Of a stretch of 24,883 nt of DNA, positions 1,057 through 24,883 are shown in pieces. Both the position numbers and the translations under genes were made by a program. The stretch is from NCBI GenBank assembly GCA_050050635.1, contig JASFTU010000001.1, positions 1 to 24,883 on the forward strand, in the 5' to 3' direction. The notes beneath the pieces are model-generated. The model ran no database searches. It saw only the letters and a program-made list of their open reading frames with translations, and was not told the DNA's origin. The stretch's first letter is position 1, and every line of letters begins with the position of its first letter. The stretch is from Candidatus Brocadiaceae bacterium (lineage in GTDB: Bacteria; Planctomycetota; Brocadiia; SM23-32).

Positions 1057-1729
1057 GCGCTGCGAGACAGGCTGGGAAGGACGGCTGGCACGGCTGGTCA
1101 CCCACCCTTACTTTGCGGTGGCGCACCGGCTGCGCTGGGAGGGGCAAGAGCGCGTGCCTCTTGAAGGGCCTGCCGTGCTGGCCGCCAACCATCAGAGTTT
1201 TCTCGATCCAGTGGCCCTGGGGCTCGCCCTTCCTCGACCGATCGTATTCATGGGCGCGGCCATCTACTACCGGGCCCCGGTAGTGGGACCGCTTATGCGG
1301 CTGTTCCGCACGGTGCCGGTGGAGGAGGACGCCCCGGGGCCGAGTTCCATCGAGCGCATGCTGGGGGCCCTGCAGAAGGGCTCACTGGTGGGCATATTCC
1401 CCGAGGGGCAGCGCACACGCGACGGCCTGCTGGGACTGCCCCACGAGGGGGTGGCCACGCTGGCGCTGAGGAGCGGAGCGCCGCTGATACCGGCAACCAT
1501 CGCCGGCGCATACGCGGCCTGGCCGGTGGGGCGGCTTTCTCCCCGCCTGGCATCCATCCGCGTGTACTTCGGGCATCCCTTCCGCGTAGAGGGAGAATCC
1601 ACGCGTCTCCGCCGCAGGGAGGTCACCAGGGATTTGATGCTGAGGATCGCCGATGGCTTCCGCCTGCTTGGCGAGCCGGAGCGGGCCGCACGGTCGCGCC
1701 GCCGCTTGCTCACCCAGTACCGCGTCTGA
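1043..1729 (+). CDS. plsC: 1-acyl-sn-glycerol-3-phosphate (lysophospholipid) acyltransferase
   Basis: NHQSFLD (HX4D catalytic motif) and IFPEGQRTRDG (FPEGTR block). ATG at 1043 overlaps the MFS stop. The listed 641 start lies inside the MFS gene and is rejected. Confidence 0.88.
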   Translation: MSVAERCETGWEGRLARLVTHPYFAVAHRLRWEGQERVPLEGPAVLAANHQSFLDPVALGLALPRPIVFMGAAIYYRAPVVGPLMRLFRTVPVEEDAPGPSSIERMLGALQKGSLVGIFPEGQRTRDGLLGLPHEGVATLALRSGAPLIPATIAGAYAAWPVGRLSPRLASIRVYFGHPFRVEGESTRLRRREVTRDLMLRIADGFRLLGEPERAARSRRRLLTQYRV

Positions 1730-1738
1730 AGACCCGTT

Positions 1739-2194
1739 TCACTCCTCGGTGGCAAAGGCTCCCAGGACGGGCTCCTCGAGGGCGACGTAATCCCCGTAGT
1801 TCATCTTGATCGTCTTGTCGTGTGTGCCGGCACGGAAGACGATCTCATCGTACCCCGCAAGTGACTCGTCCACGTAGGTCTTCAGGCCGTATTCGGAGCC
1901 GAAGGGCGGCTCGGCTCCGATTTCGCAATCCGGGAACAGCCCCTTCATCTCCTCCTCGGAGGCCATTTCCAGCTCCGCACCGGCCAGCTCGGAGGCGGCG
2001 TCGAAGTCCACGTGACGGCTCGCGGGCAGCACAAACATGAAGTCCTCCCCGCCCCCCTTCGCGATCACGGTCTTGGCGAACTTGTGGCCCGTCACGTGCT
2101 CGGTCGCCGCCACTTCCTGGGCGGTGAAGGCCTGCTCGTGGGGGATGACCTGGTACTCCACCCCGTTCTCCTTCAGGTACTGCTCGATGTTCAT
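1739..2194 (-). CDS. YbaK/EbsC-family aminoacyl-tRNA trans-editing deacylase
   Basis: HEQAFTAQEVA, conserved Lys in FAKTV, FPDCEIGAEPPFG loop, IVFRAGTH. ATG at 2194 preceded by GAAGGAGG. Subfamily and substrate cannot be assigned by eye. Confidence 0.88.
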   Translation of the reverse strand: MNIEQYLKENGVEYQVIPHEQAFTAQEVAATEHVTGHKFAKTVIAKGGGEDFMFVLPASRHVDFDAASELAGAELEMASEEEMKGLFPDCEIGAEPPFGSEYGLKTYVDESLAGYDEIVFRAGTHDKTIKMNYGDYVALEEPVLGAFATEE

Positions 2195-2251
2195 AAGCCG
2201 TCCCTCCTTCCCCAGAGAGCCGCGCATGGAGGCAGAGCCCCGCTGAGACGT

Positions 2252-2280
2252 ACGATAGCATACGCGGGTTGCCCCGTCAA
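2252..2280 (-). promoter_or_regulatory. sigma70-like promoter for the ybaK-like gene
   Basis: TTGACG (2280-2275), 17 nt spacer, TATCGT (2257-2252), with an extended -10 TG. Confidence 0.65.
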
Positions 2281-2292
2281 TGCTTGCCCGCA

Positions 2293-3162
2293 CTATACCA
2301 GGCAGAGGCCCAGACCCCGGGCAGAGCCGCGGGCCCGGGCATACTCCTCCGCCGTGACGGTGCGGTCTATCTCGGGGTAGTGGCCGGCCCGGTAGACCGG
2401 GCGGTACTGCTGCATGACGTTCACGTGCGTGTTCGGCGAGACTTCCGCGGCGAGGAAGCGCAGTATCGCCTCGCTCTCATCCACGTGCTCCGGCATGACC
2501 AGGTGTCTCACCAGCAGACCCCGCCGGGCAACGCCTCCCTCCACCTGCAGGTCGCCCACCTGCCGGTGCATCTCCCGAAGGGCCTCGCGCATGCGCTCCG
2601 GGTAATCCGGGGCTCCCGTGTACCGGTCGGCAGTCTCGGGGCCCCAGAACTTCGCGTCCGGCATGTAGATATCGACTGTGCCCTCCAGCAGGCGGAGCGT
2701 CTCCAGTGCCTCGTAGCCGCCGCAGTTGTAGACGATGGGCACCCTCAGCCCCTGCAGGCGGGCGCGACGGACGGCGTCCATCAGCCAGGGGGCAACGTGG
2801 GAGGGGGTCACGAAGTTGATGTTCTCACAGCCGCGGCCCTCGAGGGCCATCATGGTTCCGGCGATCCGTTCCGGCTCGGCTGGCGAGCCCGCGCGTCCGT
2901 GACTGATGTCGTAGTTCTGGCAGAACACACACAGCAGGTTGCAGCCGGCCAGGAAGATGGTGCCCGACCCGCCGCGGCCGACCAGACAGGGCTCCTCTCC
3001 GAAGTGCGGGCCGGCGCTGGCGAGAAGAGGCACGCGCCCGATGCCGCAGTAGCCCCGTTGGTCCTCGTGCCGGTTGACGCCACAGTCTCGCGGACAGATG
3101 CGGCAGGCGCCGGCGAGCTCGTACGCGGAGGCGACGCGCTCTTCGGTCGGCTCGGCATCCAT
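2293..3162 (-). CDS. pflX: Radical SAM protein, PflX-like (PFL-activase-related, function unknown)
   Basis: N-terminal CRICPRDCGVNR, HFGEEPCL, radical SAM motif GCNLLCVFCQNYDIS (CX3CX2C), NINFVTPSH, VDIYMPDAKF, LLVRHLVMP, VNVMQQYRP. ATG at 3162. Confidence 0.88.
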   Translation of the reverse strand: MDAEPTEERVASAYELAGACRICPRDCGVNRHEDQRGYCGIGRVPLLASAGPHFGEEPCLVGRGGSGTIFLAGCNLLCVFCQNYDISHGRAGSPAEPERIAGTMMALEGRGCENINFVTPSHVAPWLMDAVRRARLQGLRVPIVYNCGGYEALETLRLLEGTVDIYMPDAKFWGPETADRYTGAPDYPERMREALREMHRQVGDLQVEGGVARRGLLVRHLVMPEHVDESEAILRFLAAEVSPNTHVNVMQQYRPVYRAGHYPEIDRTVTAEEYARARGSARGLGLCLV

Positions 3163-3187
3163 GGGCGCCCGTCCGCCGGGGTTTGGT

Positions 3188-3216
3188 TTGGATTCGGCCT
3201 GCCCTTTCACTATAAT
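3188..3216 (+). promoter_or_regulatory. sigma70-like promoter for the xseB-nadK-oxidoreductase operon
   Basis: TTGGAT (3188-3193), 17 nt spacer, TATAAT (3211-3216). Confidence 0.75.
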
Positions 3217-3237
3217 GGAGGGTTCGCTCGACGGCAA
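3209..3237 (-). promoter_or_regulatory. sigma70-like promoter for pflX; its -10 overlaps the xseB -10
   Basis: TTGCCG (3237-3232), 17 nt spacer, TATAGT (3214-3209). Confidence 0.6.
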
Positions 3238-3326
3238 AAGCTCGCGGTCCGGTGGGCCGGCCCAGGGAGGGGGTGCGTTCGCGCCGGAACGACGTCCGCA
3301 AGCTTCCGGCCGGCACTGGAGAACGC

Positions 3327-3605
3327 ATGAGCGAGGAAGAGACAACGGAAACCCAGCCCCGGCCCGAACCGGCCGACTTCGAACAGAGCCTCAAGAAACT
3401 CGAAGAGGTCGTCGCGCGGCTCGAGGAGGGCAACCTGCCCCTGGACGAATCCCTGCAGCTCTACGAGGAAGGTATCCACGCCTATCAGCAGTGCCAGGAT
3501 CTGCTCCAGCAGGCCGACCTGAAGGTCAGGAAGCTGGTCGAGACGCTCGAGGGGGAGCTGGAGGAGGAGCCGTTCGAGCCCCCTCAGGCTTCCGGTGAGG
3601 ACTGA
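3327..3605 (+). CDS. xseB: Exodeoxyribonuclease VII small subunit
   Basis: FEQSLKKLEEVVARLEEGNLPLDESLQLYEEG...LQQADLKV is the XseB signature; GGAG RBS before ATG 3327. Confidence 0.93.
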   Translation: MSEEETTETQPRPEPADFEQSLKKLEEVVARLEEGNLPLDESLQLYEEGIHAYQQCQDLLQQADLKVRKLVETLEGELEEEPFEPPQASGED

Positions 3606-4438
3606 TGAAGAGGGTCATCATACTCGGCAACCGGCGCAAGGAGGGGGTCCTCCGGGCTGTCGAGCAGGTCGAACCGTGGCTCGGGGATCGCGTTGAGGTC
3701 GAGGTCGATCTCGACATGGAGTCACCGGCGAGCCAGGAGGAGGCGGACTTCGCCCTGGTTCTCGGCGGCGACGGGTCGATGCTTCGGGCCGCCCGGAAGG
3801 TAGGCTGCCGGGGCGTACCGTTGCTCGGGGTCAACTTCGGCAAGTTCGGCTTCCTCACCGAGACCACCGCGGAGCACCTGGAGGAAGTGCTCACCGATGT
3901 CCTGTCCGGTCGCTACGAGCTGGCCGAGCGCATGATGCTCCACTGCGTGCTCCAGCGCGAGGGTGAGCCGCTCCTGGAGACGGCGGCCCTCAACGACGCC
4001 GTCGTCTCGCGCACCGCGCTCTCTCGCATCATCACCATAGACCTCCACGTGGACGGGGATCGGGTCACCACCTACCGTGCGGACGGCCTGATAGTGGCCA
4101 CTCCCGTCGGTTCAACGGCTCACAGCTTGGCGGCCGGTGGACCCATTGTCTATCCCGAGCTGAGTGCCATCGTTGTGACTCCCATCTGCCCGCACACCCT
4201 GAGCAACCGTCCTCTGGTGCTGCCGCCGGAGGTGGAGTTGCGCCTGGCGACCCCGGACTTCGCCCAGCCGCCGGCCCTCACCGTGGACGGCCAGCTCAAC
4301 AGCGAGTTGCGGGACAACGACACCGTGATCGTGCGGAGAGCGGAGGAACCGCTCCGGCTCATCCGGACGGGCAGACAGACGTTCTTCGAGACGCTGCGCA
4401 GCAAACTGGACTGGAGAGGCCAGCCCCGGTATGTCTAA
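3605..4438 (+). CDS. nadK: NAD(+) kinase
   Basis: LGGDGSML, GVNFGKFGFL, LNDAVV, ADGLIVATPVGSTAHSLAAGGP, TPICPHTLSNRP; TGATG overlap with xseB. Confidence 0.95.
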   Translation: MKRVIILGNRRKEGVLRAVEQVEPWLGDRVEVEVDLDMESPASQEEADFALVLGGDGSMLRAARKVGCRGVPLLGVNFGKFGFLTETTAEHLEEVLTDVLSGRYELAERMMLHCVLQREGEPLLETAALNDAVVSRTALSRIITIDLHVDGDRVTTYRADGLIVATPVGSTAHSLAAGGPIVYPELSAIVVTPICPHTLSNRPLVLPPEVELRLATPDFAQPPALTVDGQLNSELRDNDTVIVRRAEEPLRLIRTGRQTFFETLRSKLDWRGQPRYV

Positions 4439-4682
4439 GCAGTTCGAGGTGAGGATCCTGACGAGCTTCTGCAAGGGGTGCGGTCTCTGCGTGGAGTTCT
4501 GCGATCAGGGCAAGCTCTACATCCGGCAGAAGCCGAACAAGAAGGGGATACAGACGGCCGCCGCCCGGCCGGACGTCCCATGCACCGGTTGCATGCGCTG
4601 CGCGCTGATGTGTCCCGACGCCGCGGTGGAGATCGTGCGCAGGGAAGAGGCCCCCGTCGGTGAGGGTGAGCCCGGGAAGTGA
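4431..4682 (+). CDS. 2[4Fe-4S] ferredoxin, delta subunit of 2-oxoacid:ferredoxin oxidoreductase
   Basis: CKGCGLCVEFC and CTGCMRCALMCPD (two CX2CX2CX3C motifs); directly upstream of the alpha subunit. Confidence 0.9.
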   Translation: MSKQFEVRILTSFCKGCGLCVEFCDQGKLYIRQKPNKKGIQTAAARPDVPCTGCMRCALMCPDAAVEIVRREEAPVGEGEPGK

Positions 4683-4685
4683 CAG

Positions 4686-5786
4686 ATGCCTGAAGAAGAG
4701 GGCAAGCGCGTACTGTTCAGCGGAAACGAGATGGCCGGGGAGGCCGCCATCCGTGCGGGATGCCGCTTCTACGCCGGTTACCCCATCACTCCGCAGAACA
4801 GGCTGACCGCCTACATGGCCGACCAGCTTCCGCTGCGGGGCGGGGTCTTCATACAGGCCGAGAGCGAGCTGGCCGCCATCAACATGCTCTACGGTGCGAG
4901 CGCGGCGGGGGCCCGGTGCATGACCTCATCCAGCAGCCCGGGCATCAGCCTGAAGCAGGAAGGGATCTCCTACCTGGCCGGCAGCGAGTTGCCCGCCGTC
5001 ATCATCAACGTGCAGCGTGGCGGCCCCGGCCTGGGGAACATCGCCCCGGCGCAGGGCGACTACTTCCAGGCCACCCGCGGCGGGGGCCACGGTGACTATC
5101 GCTGCATCGTTCTGGCGCCGGCCACCGTGCAGGAGTTCGGCGACCTGACGTACCTCGCCTTCGAGCTGGCCGACACGTACCGCAATCCTGTGACGGTCCT
5201 CAGCGACGGGATGATCGGGCAGATGATGGAGCCGGTCTGCTTCGACCACCTCACAGAACCGTCGCTTCCGCCGAAGCCCTGGGCCCTGACCGGAGAGCCC
5301 GGCCGGCCGCGGAACGTCGTCAAGTCCTTCCACGCCGTGGTCGAGGAGATGGAGCAGTTCCATCACGAATTCCTGGCCAAGTACGAGAGGATAGAGCGCG
5401 AAGAGGTGCGCTTCGAACTGGCCGGGCCGGAAGACGCCGACGTGCTCCTGGTGGCCTATGGAACCAGCGCGCGCATCTGCCGGCAGATCGTCGAGCGACC
5501 ACCGCGCGAACTTCCGTTCCGCGTCGCCCTGTTCCGGCCGGTCACGCTCTGGCCGTTCCCCGCCCGGCAGCTCTCGGAGCTGGCCGGGAGGATGCGCGGC
5601 ATGCTCGTGGTGGAGATGAGCGCCGGACAGATGGTGGACGACGTACGGCTGGCGGTTGAAGGGAGCTGTCCGGTGGAACTGATGTGCTATCTCGGCGGAC
5701 GCCTGCCCCAGGCCGGGTCCGTGACCGAGCGCCTCGTGGACACGTTCGCCCGGACCGACGCCGCCGCGCGCACGACCGGGAAGTGA
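4686..5786 (+). CDS. vorB: 2-oxoacid:ferredoxin oxidoreductase alpha subunit (VorB-type, 2-ketoisovalerate-like)
   Basis: GNEMAGEAAIRAG, YAGYPITPQ, QAESELAAINMLYGASAAGARCMTSSSSPGISLKQE, NVQRGGPGLGNI, QGDYFQAT. Substrate specificity is not provable from sequence. Confidence 0.9.
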   Translation: MPEEEGKRVLFSGNEMAGEAAIRAGCRFYAGYPITPQNRLTAYMADQLPLRGGVFIQAESELAAINMLYGASAAGARCMTSSSSPGISLKQEGISYLAGSELPAVIINVQRGGPGLGNIAPAQGDYFQATRGGGHGDYRCIVLAPATVQEFGDLTYLAFELADTYRNPVTVLSDGMIGQMMEPVCFDHLTEPSLPPKPWALTGEPGRPRNVVKSFHAVVEEMEQFHHEFLAKYERIEREEVRFELAGPEDADVLLVAYGTSARICRQIVERPPRELPFRVALFRPVTLWPFPARQLSELAGRMRGMLVVEMSAGQMVDDVRLAVEGSCPVELMCYLGGRLPQAGSVTERLVDTFARTDAAARTTGK

Positions 5787-5793
5787 GGCAAAG

Positions 5794-6582
5794 ATGGGTA
5801 TCGAACAGAAGACCGAACAGCAGACCACGCCGATCTACACCCGTCCCGACGCCATGGTGGACGTCCCGACCCACTACTGCGCAGGATGCGGGCATGGCAT
5901 CATGCACCGCCTGCTGGCCGAGGTGCTGGACGAGCTGGACATCCGGGAGAAGACCATCGGCGTCGCTCCGGTCGGGTGCGCGGTGCTGGCGTACGACTAC
6001 ATTGACATCGACTGGAGCGAGGCCGCCCACGGCCGCCCGCCGGCCGTCGCAACCGGGCTGAAGCGCATGCGCCCCGACAGGGTGGTCTTCACCTACCAGG
6101 GCGACGGGGACCTGGCCTCCATCGGCATGGCCGAAACCATTCACACCGCCAACCGCGGCGAAAACATAACGGTCATCTTCATCAACAACGCCGTTTACGG
6201 GATGACGGCCGGGCAGATGGCCCCGACCACCCTGGTCGGCCAGAAGACGGCGACCAGCCCGCGGGGCAGAGACGCCGCCACGACCGGCCATCCCATACGG
6301 ATGTGCGAGCTGCTCGACCGGCTCGCCTCCCCCGCACTGCTGGTGCGGACGACCGTGACTTCCCCGAAGCGGGTCCGAGAGACCAAGAGGTACCTGAGGA
6401 AGGCGTTCCGCTACCAGATAGACGAGGTCGGGTTCAGCCTCCTCGAGGTGCTCTCGCCCTGTCCGACCTACTGGCGCATGAGCCCGATGGAGAGCTGTCG
6501 ATACGTGGAAGAGGCCATTGCGAAGGTCTTCCCGCTGGGCGTTGTTCGGGACCTGGAGGCAGGTGAAGATGGGTCAGGGTGA
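5794..6582 (+). CDS. 2-oxoacid:ferredoxin oxidoreductase beta (TPP-binding) subunit
   Basis: HYCAGCGHG, TPP-binding motif QGDGDLASIG...NNAVYGMTAGQMAPTT, LSPCPTYW. Confidence 0.92.
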   Translation: MGIEQKTEQQTTPIYTRPDAMVDVPTHYCAGCGHGIMHRLLAEVLDELDIREKTIGVAPVGCAVLAYDYIDIDWSEAAHGRPPAVATGLKRMRPDRVVFTYQGDGDLASIGMAETIHTANRGENITVIFINNAVYGMTAGQMAPTTLVGQKTATSPRGRDAATTGHPIRMCELLDRLASPALLVRTTVTSPKRVRETKRYLRKAFRYQIDEVGFSLLEVLSPCPTYWRMSPMESCRYVEEAIAKVFPLGVVRDLEAGEDGSG

Positions 6583-7162
6583 GAACAACGGCTCCCTCGA
6601 TGGTGAGCACCGTCTCATAGCCGCAGGTTCCGGCGGCCAGGGCATCCTCACGCTCGGAAAGCTGCTCTGTATGGCCGCCATGGAGGAAGGCAGGTCGGTT
6701 ACCTTCATGCCTTCCTACGGCACGGAGGTACGGGGCGGGACGGCCAACTGCCAGGTCGTCCTGAGCAACGGACCGATCTACAGCCCGGTCGTGGAGGAGG
6801 CCGACTCGCTTATCATCCTGAACCAGCTCTCCCAGGAGCGCTTTGGTCCACGCCTGAGGGAAGGCGGCTGGCTCATCATCAACAGCTCCGGCGTGGACGT
6901 GGCGGCGCCCGAGGGGGCGCCGGGGGACACAACGGTGCCGGTGCCCGCCGCCGAACGGGCCGCCGAGATGGGGGACGTCCGGGTGGGCAACGTCATCATG
7001 CTGGGCGCGTTCGTGGAGGTCAGCGGGCTGGTGCGGCCGGCAAGCTGCCGGAAGGCCCTGCGGGAGGTCTTCACCGGTCCGAAAGCGGGCGTACTCGACC
7101 TCAACCTGGAGGCATTCGACGCGGGCTCGGCCCTGGCGGTCAAGACCACGTCGCAGCGCTGA
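6569..7162 (+). CDS. 2-oxoacid:ferredoxin oxidoreductase gamma subunit
   Basis: AGSGGQGILTLG, MPSYGTEVRGGTANCQV, GNVIMLGA, LNLEAFDAG. ATG at 6569 after GGAGG, overlapping the beta stop. Confidence 0.9.
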   Translation: MGQGENNGSLDGEHRLIAAGSGGQGILTLGKLLCMAAMEEGRSVTFMPSYGTEVRGGTANCQVVLSNGPIYSPVVEEADSLIILNQLSQERFGPRLREGGWLIINSSGVDVAAPEGAPGDTTVPVPAAERAAEMGDVRVGNVIMLGAFVEVSGLVRPASCRKALREVFTGPKAGVLDLNLEAFDAGSALAVKTTSQR

Positions 7163-7165
7163 CGG

Positions 7166-8491
7166 CTACTGCTCCAGCCTCTCCGGTTGTTCCTCTGCCG
7201 GCTCGGCCGGCGGCTGCGCAGCGGCCCGCTCCCTGGAGGGCACCTGGATCGTACGGAACTCGCTCAGCAGCACCCGGACGGACTCGAACCGGCCCGGCGC
7301 GTGCCGGCAGGGCAGATCGCTGAAGCTGTAGAGCCCGTAGTCCCAGATGGCGGGTCCACGCTCCTGTTCCCCCGCCTGCAGGCGCACCCACCACGTCTGC
7401 GCGTCGCCTCGGGCTTCCTGTTCGTCGGGGAAGCCGATGTAGTCCACCAGGACGCAATTCCGGGCCCCCCTGGGTCCGATGGTGGTGCCGCGGATGCGTA
7501 GCCTCTCGCCGGGCAGCAGTCTGGCGGCCTGGTAGCGCAAGGTAGGCCACGTGGCCGGCACCAGGCAGGTCACCCGGCTGACGGTCCCAAACGCGCGCTC
7601 GATCTGCACCTGCGTGGGCATGCCCCGGCGCAAGGTGGGTGCAGTGGCCAGGTCCTGAGGCAGCGGCGGGGAGAGCACATCGCCGACCCGGTCCGTGAAG
7701 TCCACGTTGATTCGGTTGTCGGCGCCTGCGTGGCGATACACCGTGCCGGCCGAATACTGCCCGTAGGTCTTCGCCCCCGCGGACAACCCCTCGATCTGGC
7801 CGATCAAGTTCGCCACCTGCGCGGCCACCTCCTCCGCTCGCAGCGCCTGGACCGTAACGGTCAGGGCCTCCGTCTCGCCCTCCGCGTGTGAGCAGGGGAA
7901 CTCGAACGTCTGTGTGCCCGGTCCGGTGACGACCTCCGCCTCCGGCTTGCCCGGCAGGAAGAGGTGGAGCTCACGGCTGGTGCGAGGCATCCTGACGGCG
8001 CCGAGATAAACGGCGTCGACCAGGACGTACTTCTGCCCGGCAAAGGTGCCGACCACCGTCCCCTCCACGGTCATCTGCTGCCCCGCGTTGAGCACGGGCT
8101 GTGCCTGGAGAACACCGGCGGGGATGGCACGGTCCTGGGGGATGCCGAAGAAGGTTCGGACGACGTTCGGCCCGGAACTCGGGACCGCACAGATGAGGTC
8201 GCCTTCGGTGCGGAACCCGAAGATGATGGAGTGCGTGTATCCGCCAAGTTCGATCTGCTGCGCCTGCGGCGGAACGTCCACCATCTGCACAAACGCGTCG
8301 CGGAAGCGCACGTTCGCCTGTCTGCTCTCTATGGCCGCCCGGTAGACGTCGGCCGGCGCAAGGGCCTTGTACTGCTTGACAGGCACTTTCACTTCTCGGC
8401 CCTCCGGGGTCTCTTCCTGGGCAGCGACCGACAGAGCGGCCGTCACAACGGCGGCAAACGCCACCAGAGCCGCTTTCCGCACGATCTTCAT
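7166..8491 (-). CDS. Hypothetical secreted protein with two internal ~170-aa repeats
   Basis: ATG at 8491 after GGAGG; Sec-type signal peptide MKIVRKAALVAFAAVVTAALSVAA|QE; two alignable halves (see findings); Pro/Glu-rich tail. Confidence 0.78.
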   Translation of the reverse strand: MKIVRKAALVAFAAVVTAALSVAAQEETPEGREVKVPVKQYKALAPADVYRAAIESRQANVRFRDAFVQMVDVPPQAQQIELGGYTHSIIFGFRTEGDLICAVPSSGPNVVRTFFGIPQDRAIPAGVLQAQPVLNAGQQMTVEGTVVGTFAGQKYVLVDAVYLGAVRMPRTSRELHLFLPGKPEAEVVTGPGTQTFEFPCSHAEGETEALTVTVQALRAEEVAAQVANLIGQIEGLSAGAKTYGQYSAGTVYRHAGADNRINVDFTDRVGDVLSPPLPQDLATAPTLRRGMPTQVQIERAFGTVSRVTCLVPATWPTLRYQAARLLPGERLRIRGTTIGPRGARNCVLVDYIGFPDEQEARGDAQTWWVRLQAGEQERGPAIWDYGLYSFSDLPCRHAPGRFESVRVLLSEFRTIQVPSRERAAAQPPAEPAEEQPERLEQ

Positions 8492-13651: not shown

Positions 13652-14443
13652 ATGTTCCCCGAGGCATACCTCACAGCCACGCTGCTGACGGCCGGGGCGG
13701 GCCTGTCCACCACGCTGGGCAGCCTGCTGGCGGTGATCTGGCGCGAACCGGGCCCCAGGTACATGGCCCTGGCACTGGGGTTCTCCGCCGGCGTGATGAT
13801 CCACGTTTCCTACGTGGAGTTGCTCCACGGCGGGATGGCCACGCTGGCCGCCGGGCCCGGCGGCGAACTGACGGCGTTTGCCATCGCACACCTGGCCCTG
13901 TTTGCCGGGTTCCTGGTGATGTTCCTCATCGACGTCCTCGTCTCGCACTCCTACATCCTGGAGTCGGGGAAGGGGGCGGGGGAGAGCGGCGTCCCCCTGC
14001 GTCGCATGTCGCTGCTGGTGGCGCTCGGGGTGGCCATCCACAACTTCCCGGAGGGCATGGCGACGTTCGCGGGCACCTTGCAGGACACTTCGCTGGGAGT
14101 GTCCATTGCGGTCGCGATCGCGGTGCACAACATCCCCGAGGGCGTCGCCGTGGGAGCGCCCGTTTACGCGGCGACCGGCAGCGCCAGGCGTGCCTTTCTG
14201 TGGTCGTTCCTCTCGGGCGTCAGCGAGCCGGTCGGGGCCCTGGTCGCAGGGCTGCTTCTGTTGCCATTCCTCACCCCCACGGTGCTGGCCTGTGCGCTGT
14301 GTGCGGTGGGGGGCTTCATGATCTACATCGCATTCGACGAGCTGCTCCCGGTTGCGCAGTCCTACGGCAAGCACCACCTGGCCATCATCGGTGTGCTGGC
14401 GGGCATGGCGACGATGGCACTCAGTCTGGCCCTGCTGAGGTAG
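13652..14443 (+). CDS. zupT: ZIP-family zinc/divalent metal transporter
   Basis: LGFSAGVMIHVS, VAIHNFPEG and IAVHNIPEG (ZIP signature), LSGVSEPVGA, IAFDELLP. Start is either TTG 13643 or ATG 13652. Confidence 0.92.
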   Translation: MFPEAYLTATLLTAGAGLSTTLGSLLAVIWREPGPRYMALALGFSAGVMIHVSYVELLHGGMATLAAGPGGELTAFAIAHLALFAGFLVMFLIDVLVSHSYILESGKGAGESGVPLRRMSLLVALGVAIHNFPEGMATFAGTLQDTSLGVSIAVAIAVHNIPEGVAVGAPVYAATGSARRAFLWSFLSGVSEPVGALVAGLLLLPFLTPTVLACALCAVGGFMIYIAFDELLPVAQSYGKHHLAIIGVLAGMATMALSLALLR

Positions 14444-21110: not shown

Positions 21111-21138
21111 TTGACAGATCGAGCCGAGGGCTTATAAT
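21111..21138 (+). promoter_or_regulatory. Consensus sigma70 promoter for the DUF134/ORP-like operon
   Basis: TTGACA (21111-21116), 16 nt spacer, TATAAT (21133-21138); both hexamers are exact consensus. Confidence 0.85.
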
Positions 21139-21155
21139 GAACATATGTTCATAAT
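21134..21155. promoter_or_regulatory. Palindromic operator candidate
   Basis: ATGAACATATGTTCAT (21137-21152) is a perfect 16-bp palindrome, extending to 22 bp with one mismatched pair; it overlaps the -10 and the expected start site. Confidence 0.75.
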
Positions 21156-21163
21156 CGAGACCG

Positions 21164-21508
21164 ATGCCCAGGAATAAGAAAACAAGGCTTGTCCGCCACC
21201 GACCACCGGCGGCCGTGTTCAAGCCGGCCGGGGTTCCGGCGCGGGGCCTGGAGCGTTGTGTGCTCCCGCTGGATCAGTACGAGGCGATCCGGCTGGCCGA
21301 CCACGAGGGGCTCAACCAGGAGGAGGTGGCCGAGAGGCTTGGCGTCTCGCGGCCCACCGTGAGCCGCATGCTGGCCGAGGCCCACCACACGGTGGGGGAG
21401 GCCCTGGTGGAGGGGCGGGCACTGCTGATCGAGGGCGGGCCGGTCTCGTTCGCCCCGCCGTTCGGTCGGGGTCGCCGCCGCCGCTGGCGTGGCGGAAGAA
21501 CCTGGTAG
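21164..21508 (+). CDS. DUF134 (UPF0251) HTH-containing putative DNA-binding protein
   Basis: MPRNKKTR, FKPAGVP, YEAIRLADHEGLNQEEVAERLGVSRPTVSRML...ALVEGRALLIEGG. Confidence 0.9.
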   Translation: MPRNKKTRLVRHRPPAAVFKPAGVPARGLERCVLPLDQYEAIRLADHEGLNQEEVAERLGVSRPTVSRMLAEAHHTVGEALVEGRALLIEGGPVSFAPPFGRGRRRRWRGGRTW

Positions 21509-21521
21509 GAAAGGAGTTGCC

Positions 21522-21710
21522 ATGGGAGCCGGAGCAGGTCGAGGTGCAGGTGGAGGAGGCGGGCGTGGCCGCAAGGGAGGCTTCGGCGCCGGCCCGGGCG
21601 GCAACTGCGTCTGCCCGAACTGCGGAACCAAGAAGTCGCATCAGCGCGGTGTGCCCTGCTACCAGACGAAATGCCCGAAGTGCGGCACGGCCATGACTCG
21701 GGAGCGCTGA
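21522..21710 (+). CDS. Small Gly/Arg-rich protein with a Cys-rich metal-binding ribbon
   Basis: AAGGAG RBS before ATG 21522; GPGGNCVCPNCG...HQRGVPC...CPKCGTAM. Confidence 0.8.
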   Translation: MGAGAGRGAGGGGGRGRKGGFGAGPGGNCVCPNCGTKKSHQRGVPCYQTKCPKCGTAMTRER

Positions 21711-21880
21711 GCAGGCAGTGTCGCCCTCAGCGGGACATTCACGGAGACACTCGAGAAGGAACGTAGAGACAGACCGGTGCCCGCGGCAGAGCCCCGACGG
21801 ACTGTCGCGGCAGCCGGGGGGATGGTCCCGGTAAGTGGATGGACCAGAAGCGAACCTCACTATCTAAGGAGGTGCATGTC

Positions 21881-22279
21881 ATGCCAGGTGGAGACGGAAC
21901 TGGACCTGCCGGAATGGGACCCATGACGGGACGGGCGGCCGGCTACTGCGCCGGTTACCCCGTGCCCGGTTACATGAATCCCGGGCCGAGAGGCGGCTAC
22001 GGCTTCTGGGGCCGGGGCGGCGGCCGTGGGCGCCGTAACTGGTACTATGCCACGGGCCTGCCCGGATGGGCAAGGAGCGCTCAGGGATTGCCCGCCTTCG
22101 GTGGGGTTGCCCCGGGGCGTGGCCGGGCGCCGTATGCGGCGCCCTATGCCGCACCACCGGGCGTCGGCCCGACGCCGGAGCAGGAACTCGAAGCCTTGAA
22201 GGGCCAGGCCGAGTACCTCGAGGACGCTCTGGGCGACATTCGCCGGCGTATCGAGGAACTGGAGCAGGAAGGATCCTGA
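21881..22279 (+). CDS. DUF5320-type Gly/Arg-rich protein with C-terminal coiled coil
   Basis: TAAGGAGGT RBS; MPGGDGTGPAGMGPMTGRAAGYCAG, GRGGGRGRRNWYYATGLPGW, ELEALKGQAEYLEDALGDIRRRIEELE. Confidence 0.88.
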   Translation: MPGGDGTGPAGMGPMTGRAAGYCAGYPVPGYMNPGPRGGYGFWGRGGGRGRRNWYYATGLPGWARSAQGLPAFGGVAPGRGRAPYAAPYAAPPGVGPTPEQELEALKGQAEYLEDALGDIRRRIEELEQEGS

Positions 22280-22298
22280 GCCACCCCCAACCGGCGGC

Positions 22299-22340
22299 GC
22301 ATCTCCGGGAGCGTAACAAAGCAACTGCTCCCGGGGATGC
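22299..22340 (+). other. Intergenic 14-bp RNA stem-loop without U-tract
   Basis: GCATCTCCGGGAGC (22299-22312) pairs with GCTCCCGGGGATGC (22327-22340), 13 Watson-Crick pairs and one G-U, 14-nt loop. Confidence 0.6.
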
Positions 22341-22375
22341 TCCCCGCACTTCACAGTCAGACAGGAGCAAGACAA

Positions 22376-22735
22376 GTGAAACTGTGTATCACCAGTCAGG
22401 GACCCGAACTCTCCTCCCCGGTCGACCCCCGCTTCGGGAGGGCCAGGTACTTCCTGATCTACGATGAGGACACCGAGGCCGTAGAGGCAATCGACAACGC
22501 ACAGAACGTCAATGCGGCCGGTGGTGCGGGCATACAGTCGGCGCGGACCGTCGTGGAGCGCGGAGCCGACTGGGTGGTGAGCGGCCACATCGGTCCGAAG
22601 GCGCTCTCCGTGCTGAAGGCCGGTGAAGTGAAAGTGGCCGTGGGTGCCGACGGCACCGTGCAGGATGCCATCGCGGCCTTCCGGCAGGGCGAACTCGAGC
22701 GGGCAGACGAAGCCGACGTTCCGCCCCGGTGGTGA
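22376..22735 (+). CDS. NifB/NifX-family protein, Orange protein (ORP)-like
   Basis: GTG after AGGAG; VDPRFGRARYF, GGAGIQSA, SGHIGPKA match the ORP-type motifs DPRFGRA / GAGI / GxxGPKA as I recall them. Confidence 0.88.
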   Translation: MKLCITSQGPELSSPVDPRFGRARYFLIYDEDTEAVEAIDNAQNVNAAGGAGIQSARTVVERGADWVVSGHIGPKALSVLKAGEVKVAVGADGTVQDAIAAFRQGELERADEADVPPRW

Positions 22736-22819
22736 CCGCTGGCAAGTCGGCGTGACGGGCAGCGGGAGCGGGGTCCGGTAGCGCAGGGCTCGCCGCGGCC
22801 GCAGCCCCGGGAGGATCAG

Positions 22820-23692
22820 ATGAAGGGGAGTCGCCCCGGCGAGGCCGGGACCGACCAGGCGCGCCGCGAGCAGATGGAGCGCCAGAACCGCAAGCTACAG
22901 GAGCGCATGTCCGGCATTCGCCACGTCGTGGTGGTCCTGTCCGGGAAGGGCGGCGTGGGCAAGAGCACCGTGGCTGCCAACCTGGCGGTCGCCCTGACCG
23001 GGGCCGGGCTCCGGGTGGGGCTGTTGGACGCCGACATGCATGGTCCCAGCGTGCCCAGGTTGCTTGGCCTGAGCGCCGCCCAGGTACTCTCGGACGGTGA
23101 GGATATCCTGCCCGCCGTCTACGGGCCGCACATGAAGGTGATGTCCATCACGTTCCTGGTGCGGGCGCCGGAGGAGGCGGTCATCTGGCGAGGTCCACTG
23201 AAGATGAACGTGCTCCGGCAACTGCTGGCGGACGTGGACTGGGGCGAGCTGGACTTCCTGGTGGTGGACCTCCCGCCGGGCACGGGGGATGAGCCACTGT
23301 CCATATGCCAGCTCATACCCGACGCGACCGGCGCCATCGTCGTCACCACTCCTCAGGAACTTGCGGTCTCCGACGTGCGCAAGTGCATCACGTTCTGCCG
23401 GCGACTGGAGCTCCCCGTTCTGGGTGTCCTGGAGAATATGAGCGGGTTCGTCTGCCCGCACTGTGGAAAGACGGCGAACATCTTCGGCGACGGCGGCGGC
23501 CAGAAGCTGGCCGTAAGCATGAACGTGCCTTTCCTCGGAGCCGTGCCGATCGACCCGGAGGTCGTCAGATGCTCGGATGAGGGTGAACCCTTCGTCGAGC
23601 ACCGACCGGACAGCCCCGCCACCCGTGCCTTCCAGAGTGCTATGAAACCAATCATCGAGTTGGGCGCCGAGGCGCCTGGAGAGGAGAACTGA
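22820..23692 (+). CDS. mrp: Mrp/NBP35 (ApbC) Fe-S cluster carrier ATPase
   Basis: Deviant Walker A SGKGGVGKST, DADMHGPS, VIWRGP, VDLPPGTGD, ENMSGFVCPHCG; GGAGG RBS. Confidence 0.93.
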   Translation: MKGSRPGEAGTDQARREQMERQNRKLQERMSGIRHVVVVLSGKGGVGKSTVAANLAVALTGAGLRVGLLDADMHGPSVPRLLGLSAAQVLSDGEDILPAVYGPHMKVMSITFLVRAPEEAVIWRGPLKMNVLRQLLADVDWGELDFLVVDLPPGTGDEPLSICQLIPDATGAIVVTTPQELAVSDVRKCITFCRRLELPVLGVLENMSGFVCPHCGKTANIFGDGGGQKLAVSMNVPFLGAVPIDPEVVRCSDEGEPFVEHRPDSPATRAFQSAMKPIIELGAEAPGEEN

Positions 23693-24030
23693 TGCGCGTT
23701 GCATTGCCGCTCGCAGACGGGCTGCTGGCCCGCCACTTCGGCCATTGCCAGGAATTCGCGATATTCGACGTAAACCGGGAGGACGGCTCGATCGAAGAGT
23801 CGGACAGACTCCAGGCGCCGCCGCACCGTCCCGGCCTTCTTCCCGGATGGCTCAGGGACCAGGGCGCCGAAGCCATCATCGCGGGCGGCATGGGGCGCCG
23901 AGCACAGGACCTGTTCGCCCGGGCCGGCATCGAGGTCGTCATCGGTGCTCCCCATGAGGAGCCCGAGCGCATCGTCGAACGCTACGCAACAGGCCGGCTG
24001 GAGACAGGTGAGAACATCTGCGACCACTGA
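23692..24030 (+). CDS. Second NifB/NifX-family protein (His/Cys-rich type)
   Basis: RVALP, HFGHCQEF, PPHRPG, IIAGGMG, C-terminal NICDH; TGATG overlap with mrp. Confidence 0.88.
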   Translation: MRVALPLADGLLARHFGHCQEFAIFDVNREDGSIEESDRLQAPPHRPGLLPGWLRDQGAEAIIAGGMGRRAQDLFARAGIEVVIGAPHEEPERIVERYATGRLETGENICDH

Positions 24031-24047
24031 CAGGTGGAGCCCATCCG

Positions 24048-24883
24048 GTGGTCATCACCGTTGCCAGCGGCAAGGGGGGCACGGGCAAGACCACGGTTGC
24101 CGTCAACCTGGCGACCGTGCTGGCGCGAAGCGAGGAACTCAGGCCGAGGGTGTGCCTGCTGGACTGCGACGTTGAGGAGCCGAACGACCATCTGTTCGTG
24201 CGGCCCCGCTTCACGCAGGACCTGGCAGTGGAGGCGTTGAAGCCCGTTTGGGACGAGGAACGCTGCACCGGTTGCGGCAGGTGCGGCGAGGCGTGCAACT
24301 ACAACGCCATCGCCGTGGTGCGTGGCCGCGTCCTGCTGTTCCCGGAGCTCTGTCACGCCTGTGGGGTGTGCAGCTTCGTGTGCCCCGAAGGAGCGATGGC
24401 CGAACGGGAGTCCGAGATAGGCCGCGTGCAGCTTGCGCCGGATCATCGGGGCTTTGCCTTCGGGCACGGAGTGCTGAACGTGGGCGAGTCGCTGGCGCCC
24501 GCCGTCGTGGCGGCGGTCAAGAGCCACATCCGGCCCGGCGACTGCACCATCATAGACGCTGCGCCGGGCACGGCCTGTCCCGTCGTGGAGGCCGTCCGAG
24601 GTTCCGACCTGGCGCTGCTCGTCACGGAGCCGACGCCCTTCGGACTGAGTGACCTGCGGGTTGCGGTCGGCGTCACCCTCAGAGTCGGGGTTCCGTGCGC
24701 CATCGTCGTCAACAGGTCGGACGGCTCGGACGAACTGATCCAGCGCTATGCGGACCACGTCGGCGTGCCCGTGGTCGGCCGGATCCCCTTCCGCCGTGAG
24801 TATGCCGAGACCTACTCACACGGCGAACTGCTCGTGGACCGCCACCCGGAACTCAATGCCCTTCTGATGGATATGTACCGCCG
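24048..24883 (+). CDS. MinD-superfamily P-loop ATPase with inserted 2[4Fe-4S] ferredoxin domain, 3'-truncated by the window edge
   Basis: Absent from the ORF track because it runs off the end. My translation from GTG 24048: VITVASGKGGTGKTT, DCDVEEPNDHLF, CTGCGRCGEAC, CHACGVCSFVCP, IDAAPGTACPV, VTEPTPFGLSDL. Confidence 0.9.
   Translation, partial: MVITVASGKGGTGKTTVAVNLATVLARSEELRPRVCLLDCDVEEPNDHLFVRPRFTQDLAVEALKPVWDEERCTGCGRCGEACNYNAIAVVRGRVLLFPELCHACGVCSFVCPEGAMAERESEIGRVQLAPDHRGFAFGHGVLNVGESLAPAVVAAVKSHIRPGDCTIIDAAPGTACPVVEAVRGSDLALLVTEPTPFGLSDLRVAVGVTLRVGVPCAIVVNRSDGSDELIQRYADHVGVPVVGRIPFRREYAETYSHGELLVDRHPELNALLMDMYR

Follow-up and report, generated by a model that had tools for sequence, protein, structure and literature searches.

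A candidate DUF134 operator over the sigma-70 promoter of an Orange-protein-type operon in a Candidatus Brocadiaceae bacterium

The DNA analyzed here is the entire contig C1 (JASFTU010000001.1) of a Candidatus Brocadiaceae bacterium, a stretch of 24,883 nucleotides that is referred to below as the window, and the subject is a group of seven + strand genes that runs from position 21164 to the contig end. These genes appear to form one operon, read as a single transcript, for a metal-sulfur protein set of the ORP (Orange protein) type. We give a probability of about 0.7 to the reading that this operon is transcribed from a sigma-70 promoter and is kept off by default by the DUF134 protein that it encodes, through binding to a CATATG-centred palindrome. 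Autorepression by DUF134 is most likely the mode of control, although both the binding and the repression are inferred by us from the sequence. The elements on which this reading turns are as follows.

21111..21138, + strand: sigma-70-type promoter, TTGACA-16 nt-TATAAT, 12/12 consensus positions
21137..21152, no strand assigned: 16-bp perfect palindrome ATGAACATATGTTCAT, candidate DUF134 operator from comparative conservation
21164..21508, + strand: DUF134 (UPF0251) helix-turn-helix (HTH) protein (PF02001, E 2e-20)

The promoter is the only promoter-like site on the + strand of the operon region, and the 4-kb region as a whole has 2 such sites against 0.2 expected from shuffled sequences. A sigma-70 promoter had been proposed in an earlier reading of the bare sequence (the original prediction), and that proposal is borne out by the 12/12 motif and by the conservation of both the -35 and the -10 hexamers, which relatives have at an unchanged distance from DUF134. 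The final two bases of the -10 box are also the first two of the palindrome, which covers the expected transcription start, with the DUF134 ATG located 11 nt further on. Because the candidate operator lies over the -10 box and the +1 position of a consensus promoter, occlusion of the polymerase would be the expected means of repression.

The palindrome was found before DUF134 in 17/18 of the relatives' loci. The upstream DNA of these 17 relatives has diverged, and nothing but the -35 box and one block, TATAATGAACATATGTTCATAAT, is kept in it. When up to 2 mismatches were allowed, one copy of the palindrome was found in each of six genomes (G000, G003, G004, G011, G012 and G015), always before DUF134, and DUF134 is the sole regulator gene that travels with it. 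Variants that are changed symmetrically in both arms occur in G009 (GAGC/GCTC) and in family f4 (GGGC/GCCC). The identical palindrome sequence is present in one other Planctomycetota family, and CATATG-centred palindromes also occur at the DUF134 promoters of Cloacimonadota loci and of one unclassified bacterium. In a sample of 301 Planctomycetota genomes, at least 12 of the 22 that bear DUF134 have a CATATG-centred palindrome at the DUF134 promoter. In a small sample, the recognition-helix residue next after an invariant Ser-Arg could be paired with the half-site, as SRPT with GAAC, SRQT with GGC and SRST with GCAC.

Two further elements of the window resemble those just described. One is an 11/12 sigma-70 promoter, TTGACA-16-TAGAAT, at 21070-21043 on the - strand, which serves the divergent IclR gene (21005-20208) and adjoins the DUF134 promoter in a back-to-back arrangement; no relative has the IclR/RdhA-like unit linked to DUF134. 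The other is the only other perfect 16-nt palindrome of the window, the GC-only CCGCCGGGCCCGGCGG at 13848-13863.

The DUF134 protein scored 73.4 bits against its Pfam model (gathering cutoff 27). It consists of 114 residues, with a three-helix HTH, flanking beta strands and a disordered Arg/Gly-rich tail, and its AlphaFold2 model has a pLDDT (predicted local distance difference test) of 81 overall and above 90 in the core. When superposed, the HTH fits the DNA-binding domain of operator-bound Bacillus subtilis DeoR, and likewise sigma region 4, at 0.5-0.9 A, while neither DUF134 nor the DUF5320 protein of the same operon had a sequence match to any solved structure. A CxxC..CxxC ribbon closes most other DUF134 proteins, whereas those of family f1, the GTDB family of class Brocadiia to which the source genome belongs, end in the Arg/Gly-rich tail. 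Longer DUF134 proteins with a C-terminal CxxC..CPxC ribbon were seen in Planctomycetota (L099, L101, L103, L104, L118 and L121), and in some of them the ribbon is followed by an Arg/Gly-rich tail. Comparable ribbon and tail elements occur in family f1 in a separate small gene directly after DUF134, and this gene may have arisen by a gene split.

In the mechanism that we propose, the housekeeping sigma-70 polymerase would transcribe the operon from the consensus promoter unless a DUF134 dimer, bound to the CATATG-centred palindrome over the -10 box and the start, blocks its access. Repression by DUF134 would then be released by a signal. Once the proteins are made, Mrp would load [4Fe-4S] clusters onto the MinD-ferredoxin proteins associated with the ORP-like protein. 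This last step is drawn by analogy with Desulfovibrio, in which MrpORP binds Fe-S clusters on both of its domains and passes them to Orp3/Orp4 (PMC6345978). Judged by homology, the operon most likely encodes an Fe-S handling complex of the ORP type.

The DUF134-led cluster recurs in the class. DUF134 homologues were found in 18/24 other family f1 genomes, in 1/4 genomes of family f4 and in 0/7 of family f5, the family in which the complete genomes of the class sit. The order in the 18 fetched loci is DUF134, Cys-ribbon, DUF5320, ORP-like, Mrp, Di-Nase, MinD-ferredoxin and second MinD-ferredoxin, with 1-3 copies of DUF5320, 1-2 copies of the ORP-like gene, and some permutations and insertions; the DUF134-led order is repeated in further Brocadiia loci. 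Since the order recurs in relatives, the gene set is considered to be more than a chance assembly. The second MinD-ferredoxin of the relatives is approximately 33% identical to the first. Such a second gene had been expected just past the window, and it is indeed directly next in at least 10 of the relatives' loci. Contig C1 ends where the window ends, and the assembly (a 2.64-Mb metagenome-assembled genome of 475 contigs, 64% complete) has no sequence 3' of the MinD-ferredoxin gene. The second partner was not found on its other contigs, where the sole other gene of this kind lies on contig C73.

The genes that follow DUF134 on the + strand, as identified from the list of open reading frames (ORFs), Pfam and NCBIfam, are given below. 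The seven-gene list of the original prediction was correct, with all genes on the + strand and with the domain matches as named.

21522..21710, + strand: small Gly/Arg-rich six-Cys ribbon protein; the ORF opens at GTG 21489
21881..22279, + strand: DUF5320 protein with a Gly/Arg-rich N-part and a C-terminal helix (PF17253, E 2e-22)
22376..22735, + strand: ORP-type single-domain NifX-like protein 1, the Orp8 equivalent (PF02579, E 1.5e-23)
22820..23692, + strand: Mrp/NBP35 P-loop Fe-S carrier (PF10609, E 2e-99)
23692..24030, + strand: NifX-like protein 2, a stand-alone Di-Nase domain (PF02579, E 5.5e-20)
24048..24883, + strand, 3' open: MinD-type ATPase of the Orp3/Orp4 kind into which a 2x[4Fe-4S] ferredoxin domain is inserted (CbiA/ParA and Fer4)

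The intergenic distances are, in order, 13, 170, 96 and 84 nt, a 1-nt overlap (the start of NifX-like 2 with the stop of Mrp) and 17 nt, and no terminator-like sites were seen inside the operon. The Cys-ribbon protein (ORF 21489-21710) has its likely start at ATG 21522 behind AAGGAG. It is a protein of 62-73 residues with six Cys and weak zinc-ribbon Pfam matches, and its C-terminal 35-42 residues are 61-82% identical in 17/18 of the relatives' loci. The DUF5320 ORF spans 21839-22279, with the likely start at ATG 21881 and AAGGAGG located 8 nt before it. Arg/Gly-rich stretches are present in three proteins of the window, namely DUF134, the Cys-ribbon protein and DUF5320.

In relatives, the Cys-ribbon gene is separated from the full DUF5320 gene by an additional short ORF, whose match to DUF5320 is limited to the first 34-43 residues (MPGGDGTGP...GYC motif), for example at L026:3171-3272, L027:6791-6901 and L033:6751-6873; the window has the 170-nt gap at this position instead.

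NifX-like 1 lies in the ORF 22337-22735, but its actual start is GTG 22376, as in database entry P0001, which gives a protein of 119 residues. Its top match in the PDB is the Desulfovibrio gigas ORP (2WFB, 75.9 bits), followed by TM1290 (72.2 bits), when a single sequence is used; a profile of 19 homologues scored 95.4 bits with 2WFB, 91.8 with TM1290 and 91.2 with MTH1175, and had no match to NifX, NafY or NifB proper. The protein thus groups with the ORP subfamily, as the original prediction had it, with 2WFB as the best PDB match in both searches. Because these scores are nearly tied, the placement is in the ORP/TM1290/MTH1175 subfamily and not specifically in the Desulfovibrio branch. NifX-like 1 has 333 homologues at E<=1e-8. 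In a PF02579 tree that covered all loci studied, three clades were resolved (ORP-like, MrpORP-Di-Nase-like and a third type), and NifX-like 1 falls in the ORP-like clade, while the third clade was found only beside a sigma-54 activator.

The gene that had been described as a second NifX does encode a NifX-like domain (PF02579), but it is better described as the detached C-terminal domain of MrpORP. NifX-like 2 scored approximately 48 bits with PH0822 and TM1816, with which it groups, and only 16 bits with ORP. On the NCBIfam model NF041136 for the fused protein (365 positions), Mrp matched positions 1-253 with 381 bits and has the CPHC motif, and NifX-like 2 matched positions 265-364 with 120 bits and has an HFGHC motif close to the start and a terminal CDH. 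Neither reached the 450-bit cutoff of this model, and because together they cover 1-253 and 265-364, MrpORP is considered to be split here into two coupled genes. The relatives likewise have separate Mrp and Di-Nase genes, 10-265 nt apart. The MinD-ferredoxin of the window has a P-loop and two 4Fe-4S motifs.

A second, paralogous ORP-like set of six genes was found in the source genome on contig C73 (locus L050), at 1138-7785 and on a single strand. Its elements are as follows.

L050:1138-1497: ORP-like gene, 53% identical to NifX-like 1 of the window
L050:1555-3141: Fer2-RACo-like gene
L050:3181-5133: double MinD-ferredoxin of 650 residues in one frame, first half 62% identical to the window gene
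L050:5143-6525: PAS-AAA+-HTH_8 activator
L050:6670-6686: sigma-54 promoter motif TTGGTACGGTGTGTGCG, approximately 40 nt before a NifX-like gene, identified as a motif only
3' of the activator, ending by 7785: third-type NifX-like gene, then a DUF89/ARMT1 gene

The ORP-like gene of this set was compared by pairwise identity and was not placed by the PF02579 tree. The PAS domain of the activator has C62-x8-C71-x3-C75 and Glu64, all invariant in 7 orthologues. This matches the spacing of C52, C61 and C65 in OrpR, which has Asp/Glu at position 54 (PMC8359166). At the same spot as TTGGTACGGTGTGTGCG, a clearer TTGGCAC-N5-TGTGC is present in 5 orthologous loci. In families f2, f4 and f6, an OrpR-like activator heads a cluster of the same core genes (third NifX type, Cys-ribbon, DUF5320, ORP-like, two MinD-ferredoxins, Mrp and Di-Nase), and no DUF134 was found in these activator-headed loci by tblastn. 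One gene set therefore stands behind either regulator within Brocadiia, the activator in some families and DUF134 in another. Both kinds of set are present together in the source genome, G008 and G009. The separate regulatory logic that had been proposed for the window thus holds for its own operon, which has the palindrome at the promoter, but it coexists in the same genome with logic of the Desulfovibrio type on C73.

Two side observations concern these gene sets. In the double MinD-ferredoxin of C73, two units (Orp3-like and Orp4-like) share one frame without a stop, as they do in the G009 orthologues (L083:5694-7628), and L050:3181-5133 may represent a natural fusion of Orp3 with Orp4. Some ORP clusters of Brocadiia have a Fer2 and RACo-like gene (ASKHA reductive-activase type) between the ORP-like and Mrp genes; examples of such genes are at L053:8410-9993 and L055:955-2538, in addition to that of C73. 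This insertion hints at ATP-driven low-potential reduction within the ORP system.

The presence of the C73 activator raises the alternative that the operon of the window is still under sigma-54/OrpR control, with this activator working through a degenerate promoter. The source genome has 11 sigma-54 activators (10-17 per genome), one of which is OrpR-like, and rpoN is present in 4/4 near-complete relatives, although it was not found in the 64%-complete source genome. However, TGGCAC-N5-TTGC had no match with up to 2 mismatches when the + strand was scanned between 20900 and the contig end, TGG-N9-TGC was absent from all four intergenic gaps, and neither an OrpR-type TTGCA..TGCAA site nor a sigma-54 activator gene was found in the window; the motif searches and the gene list thus agree with the original prediction, which had seen no -24/-12 box and no such activator. 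The sigma-54 motif is easy to see where it is present, because all OrpR-linked clusters show a clear TTGGCAC-N5-TGTGC approximately 40-55 nt before the first gene, and a 12/12 sigma-70 promoter requires no activator. Control by sigma-54 is consequently judged to be very improbable. It is also improbable, if less so, that DUF134 is a passenger and that the palindrome is bound by another regulator, such as LexA, the divergent IclR or a global factor. The palindrome core GAAC-ATAT-GTTC resembles the Gram-positive SOS box and is identical to the core of the Cheo box, and the intergenic region is shared with the IclR gene and that gene's promoter. On the other hand, the palindrome is not a regulon site, because it occurs as a single copy in each of the six genomes searched, and the variants GGGCATATGCCC and TGCACATATGTGCA lack GAAC/GTTC and are still located at DUF134 promoters. 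Both named candidates were rejected: at lexA in this family the conserved promoter box is a different one, ATACATTTGT, with no GAAC-N4-GTTC present, and the IclR gene is missing from all 18 relatives' loci.

The symmetric base changes in the palindrome would be equally expected of an RNA stem, so that it could be read as a hairpin in the 5' leader that acts as an attenuator or stability element. This we find barely credible, because the left arm begins inside the -10 box and a start approximately 7 nt after it would leave only the right arm in the transcript. In addition, the predicted leader folds no better than shuffled sequences (z -0.65), and the palindrome of L068 sits between the -35 and -10 boxes, in untranscribed DNA. 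A riboswitch was rejected, as no Rfam elements were found. With regard to function, it is conceivable but unlikely that a Mo-Cu-S (thiomolybdate) cluster, like that of the purified orange protein of Desulfovibrio, is what the system specifically handles, rather than iron-sulfur material. The nearest structural relative of NifX-like 1 is the Mo-Cu cluster protein ORP, and Orp8 carries a Mo-Cu-S cluster (PMC6345978), described in the literature as a non-covalent S2MoS2CuS2MoS2 cluster. However, no Mo, W or Cu genes and no molybdenum cofactor (Moco) riboswitch were found in or next to the operon, and the window as a whole has no feature specific to Mo, W or Cu. NifX-like 1 matches TM1290 and MTH1175 with equal scores, no report of a Mo-Cu cluster was found for these two, and what the partner proteins have been shown to do is bind and transfer Fe-S clusters.

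Like the operon promoter, those of lexA in this family are of the sigma-70 type. In L091 (contig C63 of the source genome), L090, L092 and L093, the block TAT(A/G/C)ATACATTTGT(T/G/A)GAGA is located approximately 70-100 nt before lexA and overlaps the -10 box. This block is a candidate SOS box that is unlike the GAAC-N4-GTTC type.

Several points weigh against autorepression of a single ORP-type operon by DUF134. The number of perfect 16-nt palindromes in the window (2 seen, 1.0 expected) is at chance level when taken alone. The family f1 DUF134 proteins have no conserved Cys in the alignment and therefore no obvious sensor. The names DUF134 and UPF0251 occur in the searchable literature, where no functional account or experiment was found. 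The 170-nt gap at 21711-21880 could conceal an internal promoter. A search of public runs found the sequence in one run only, a DNA run from a wetland metagenome, and in no RNA run, and both the start site and co-transcription are predictions. Finally, TM1290 and MTH1175 are about as near to NifX-like 1 as ORP is.

Strict anaerobes widely carry the ORP cluster, which has been partly characterized in Desulfovibrio. No account of DUF134 control of ORP clusters was present in the literature that could be searched, and the DUF134-led cluster gives this function-unknown family a concrete candidate DNA site and candidate target genes. Brocadiia also offer a natural comparison of two regulators on the same genes, which could show the signals involved, redox or other, and hint at the function of ORP. 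A more far-reaching model, which we put forward as a doubtful one, is that a planctomycete genome runs two ORP modules, one under a redox-sensing Fe-S PAS activator of the sigma-54 type and the other under a Cys-free DUF134 repressor. The Arg/Gly tail of this repressor, which has counterparts in the two small proteins encoded next and is reminiscent of the thioferrate-binding IssA tail, would sense anionic metal-sulfur species, so that the second module would be substrate-induced, with the two regulators swapped across the class. An anionic ligand common to the Arg/Gly-rich tails is speculation.

Among known systems, the HTH of DUF134 can be compared with that of B. subtilis DeoR (SorC family), to which it is 41-44% identical over approximately 40 residues (Foldseek E approximately 0.03), but DUF134 lacks the SorC effector domain. 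IssA of Pyrococcus furiosus binds thioferrate through a cationic tail (PMC6345978). It is a NifX-like family protein by description, and its cationic tail differs in place from the cationic segments of the window, which belong to DUF134, to the Cys-ribbon protein and to DUF5320 rather than to the NifX-like proteins. The single PF02579 domain of approximately 119 residues is shared by ORP 2WFB, TM1290 (1RDU) and MTH1175 (1EO1), whose DPRFGRA and GAGI loops align with NifX-like 1. With profile scores of 95, 92 and 91 bits, NifX-like 1 is not nearer to ORP than to the other two, and its Mo-Cu binding is putative.

The Desulfovibrio vulgaris Orp proteins were represented in these comparisons by the NCBIfam MrpORP model, PDB 2WFB and published motifs. 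MrpORP (NF041136; DVU2109, Dde3202) is a fused protein, whereas the window has two translationally coupled genes. The CXXC of the Mrp part is kept in the window proteins, as are the HFGHC and CDH motifs described for the Di-Nase part (PMC6345978), but the first Cys of CXHFGHCE is Ala in NifX-like 2. The likeness to OrpR (DVU2106) lies in the C73 activator and not in the window: it is of the PAS-AAA+-HTH_8 build, with C-x8-C-x3-C and Glu at +2, orp-like neighbours and a sigma-54 promoter downstream. This likeness is one of build and motifs. The palindromes upstream are of the TTGCA..TGCAA type and differ from the published GGGCGYRTTTTGCGCCC.

In D. vulgaris Hildenborough, the ORP operons are arranged as orp5-orp4-orp3 / orpR / orp7-orp8-orp9 (PMC8359166, PMC3897727, PMC6345978). 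The same kinds of protein are encoded here (Orp8, Orp9/MrpORP and Orp3/Orp4), likewise in an anaerobe lineage. In contrast to the two divergent operons of D. vulgaris, which depend on sigma-54, OrpR and integration host factor (IHF), the window has one co-directional operon with a sigma-70 consensus promoter and a candidate DUF134 operator. MrpORP is split, DUF134, Cys-ribbon and DUF5320 genes are added, and an Orp5 equivalent was not identified. The ORP cluster itself is thus already known, and what is new in comparison is the split MrpORP, the Cys-free DUF134, and the occurrence of DUF134 and OrpR-like regulators both side by side in one genome and in alternation at the level of the class.

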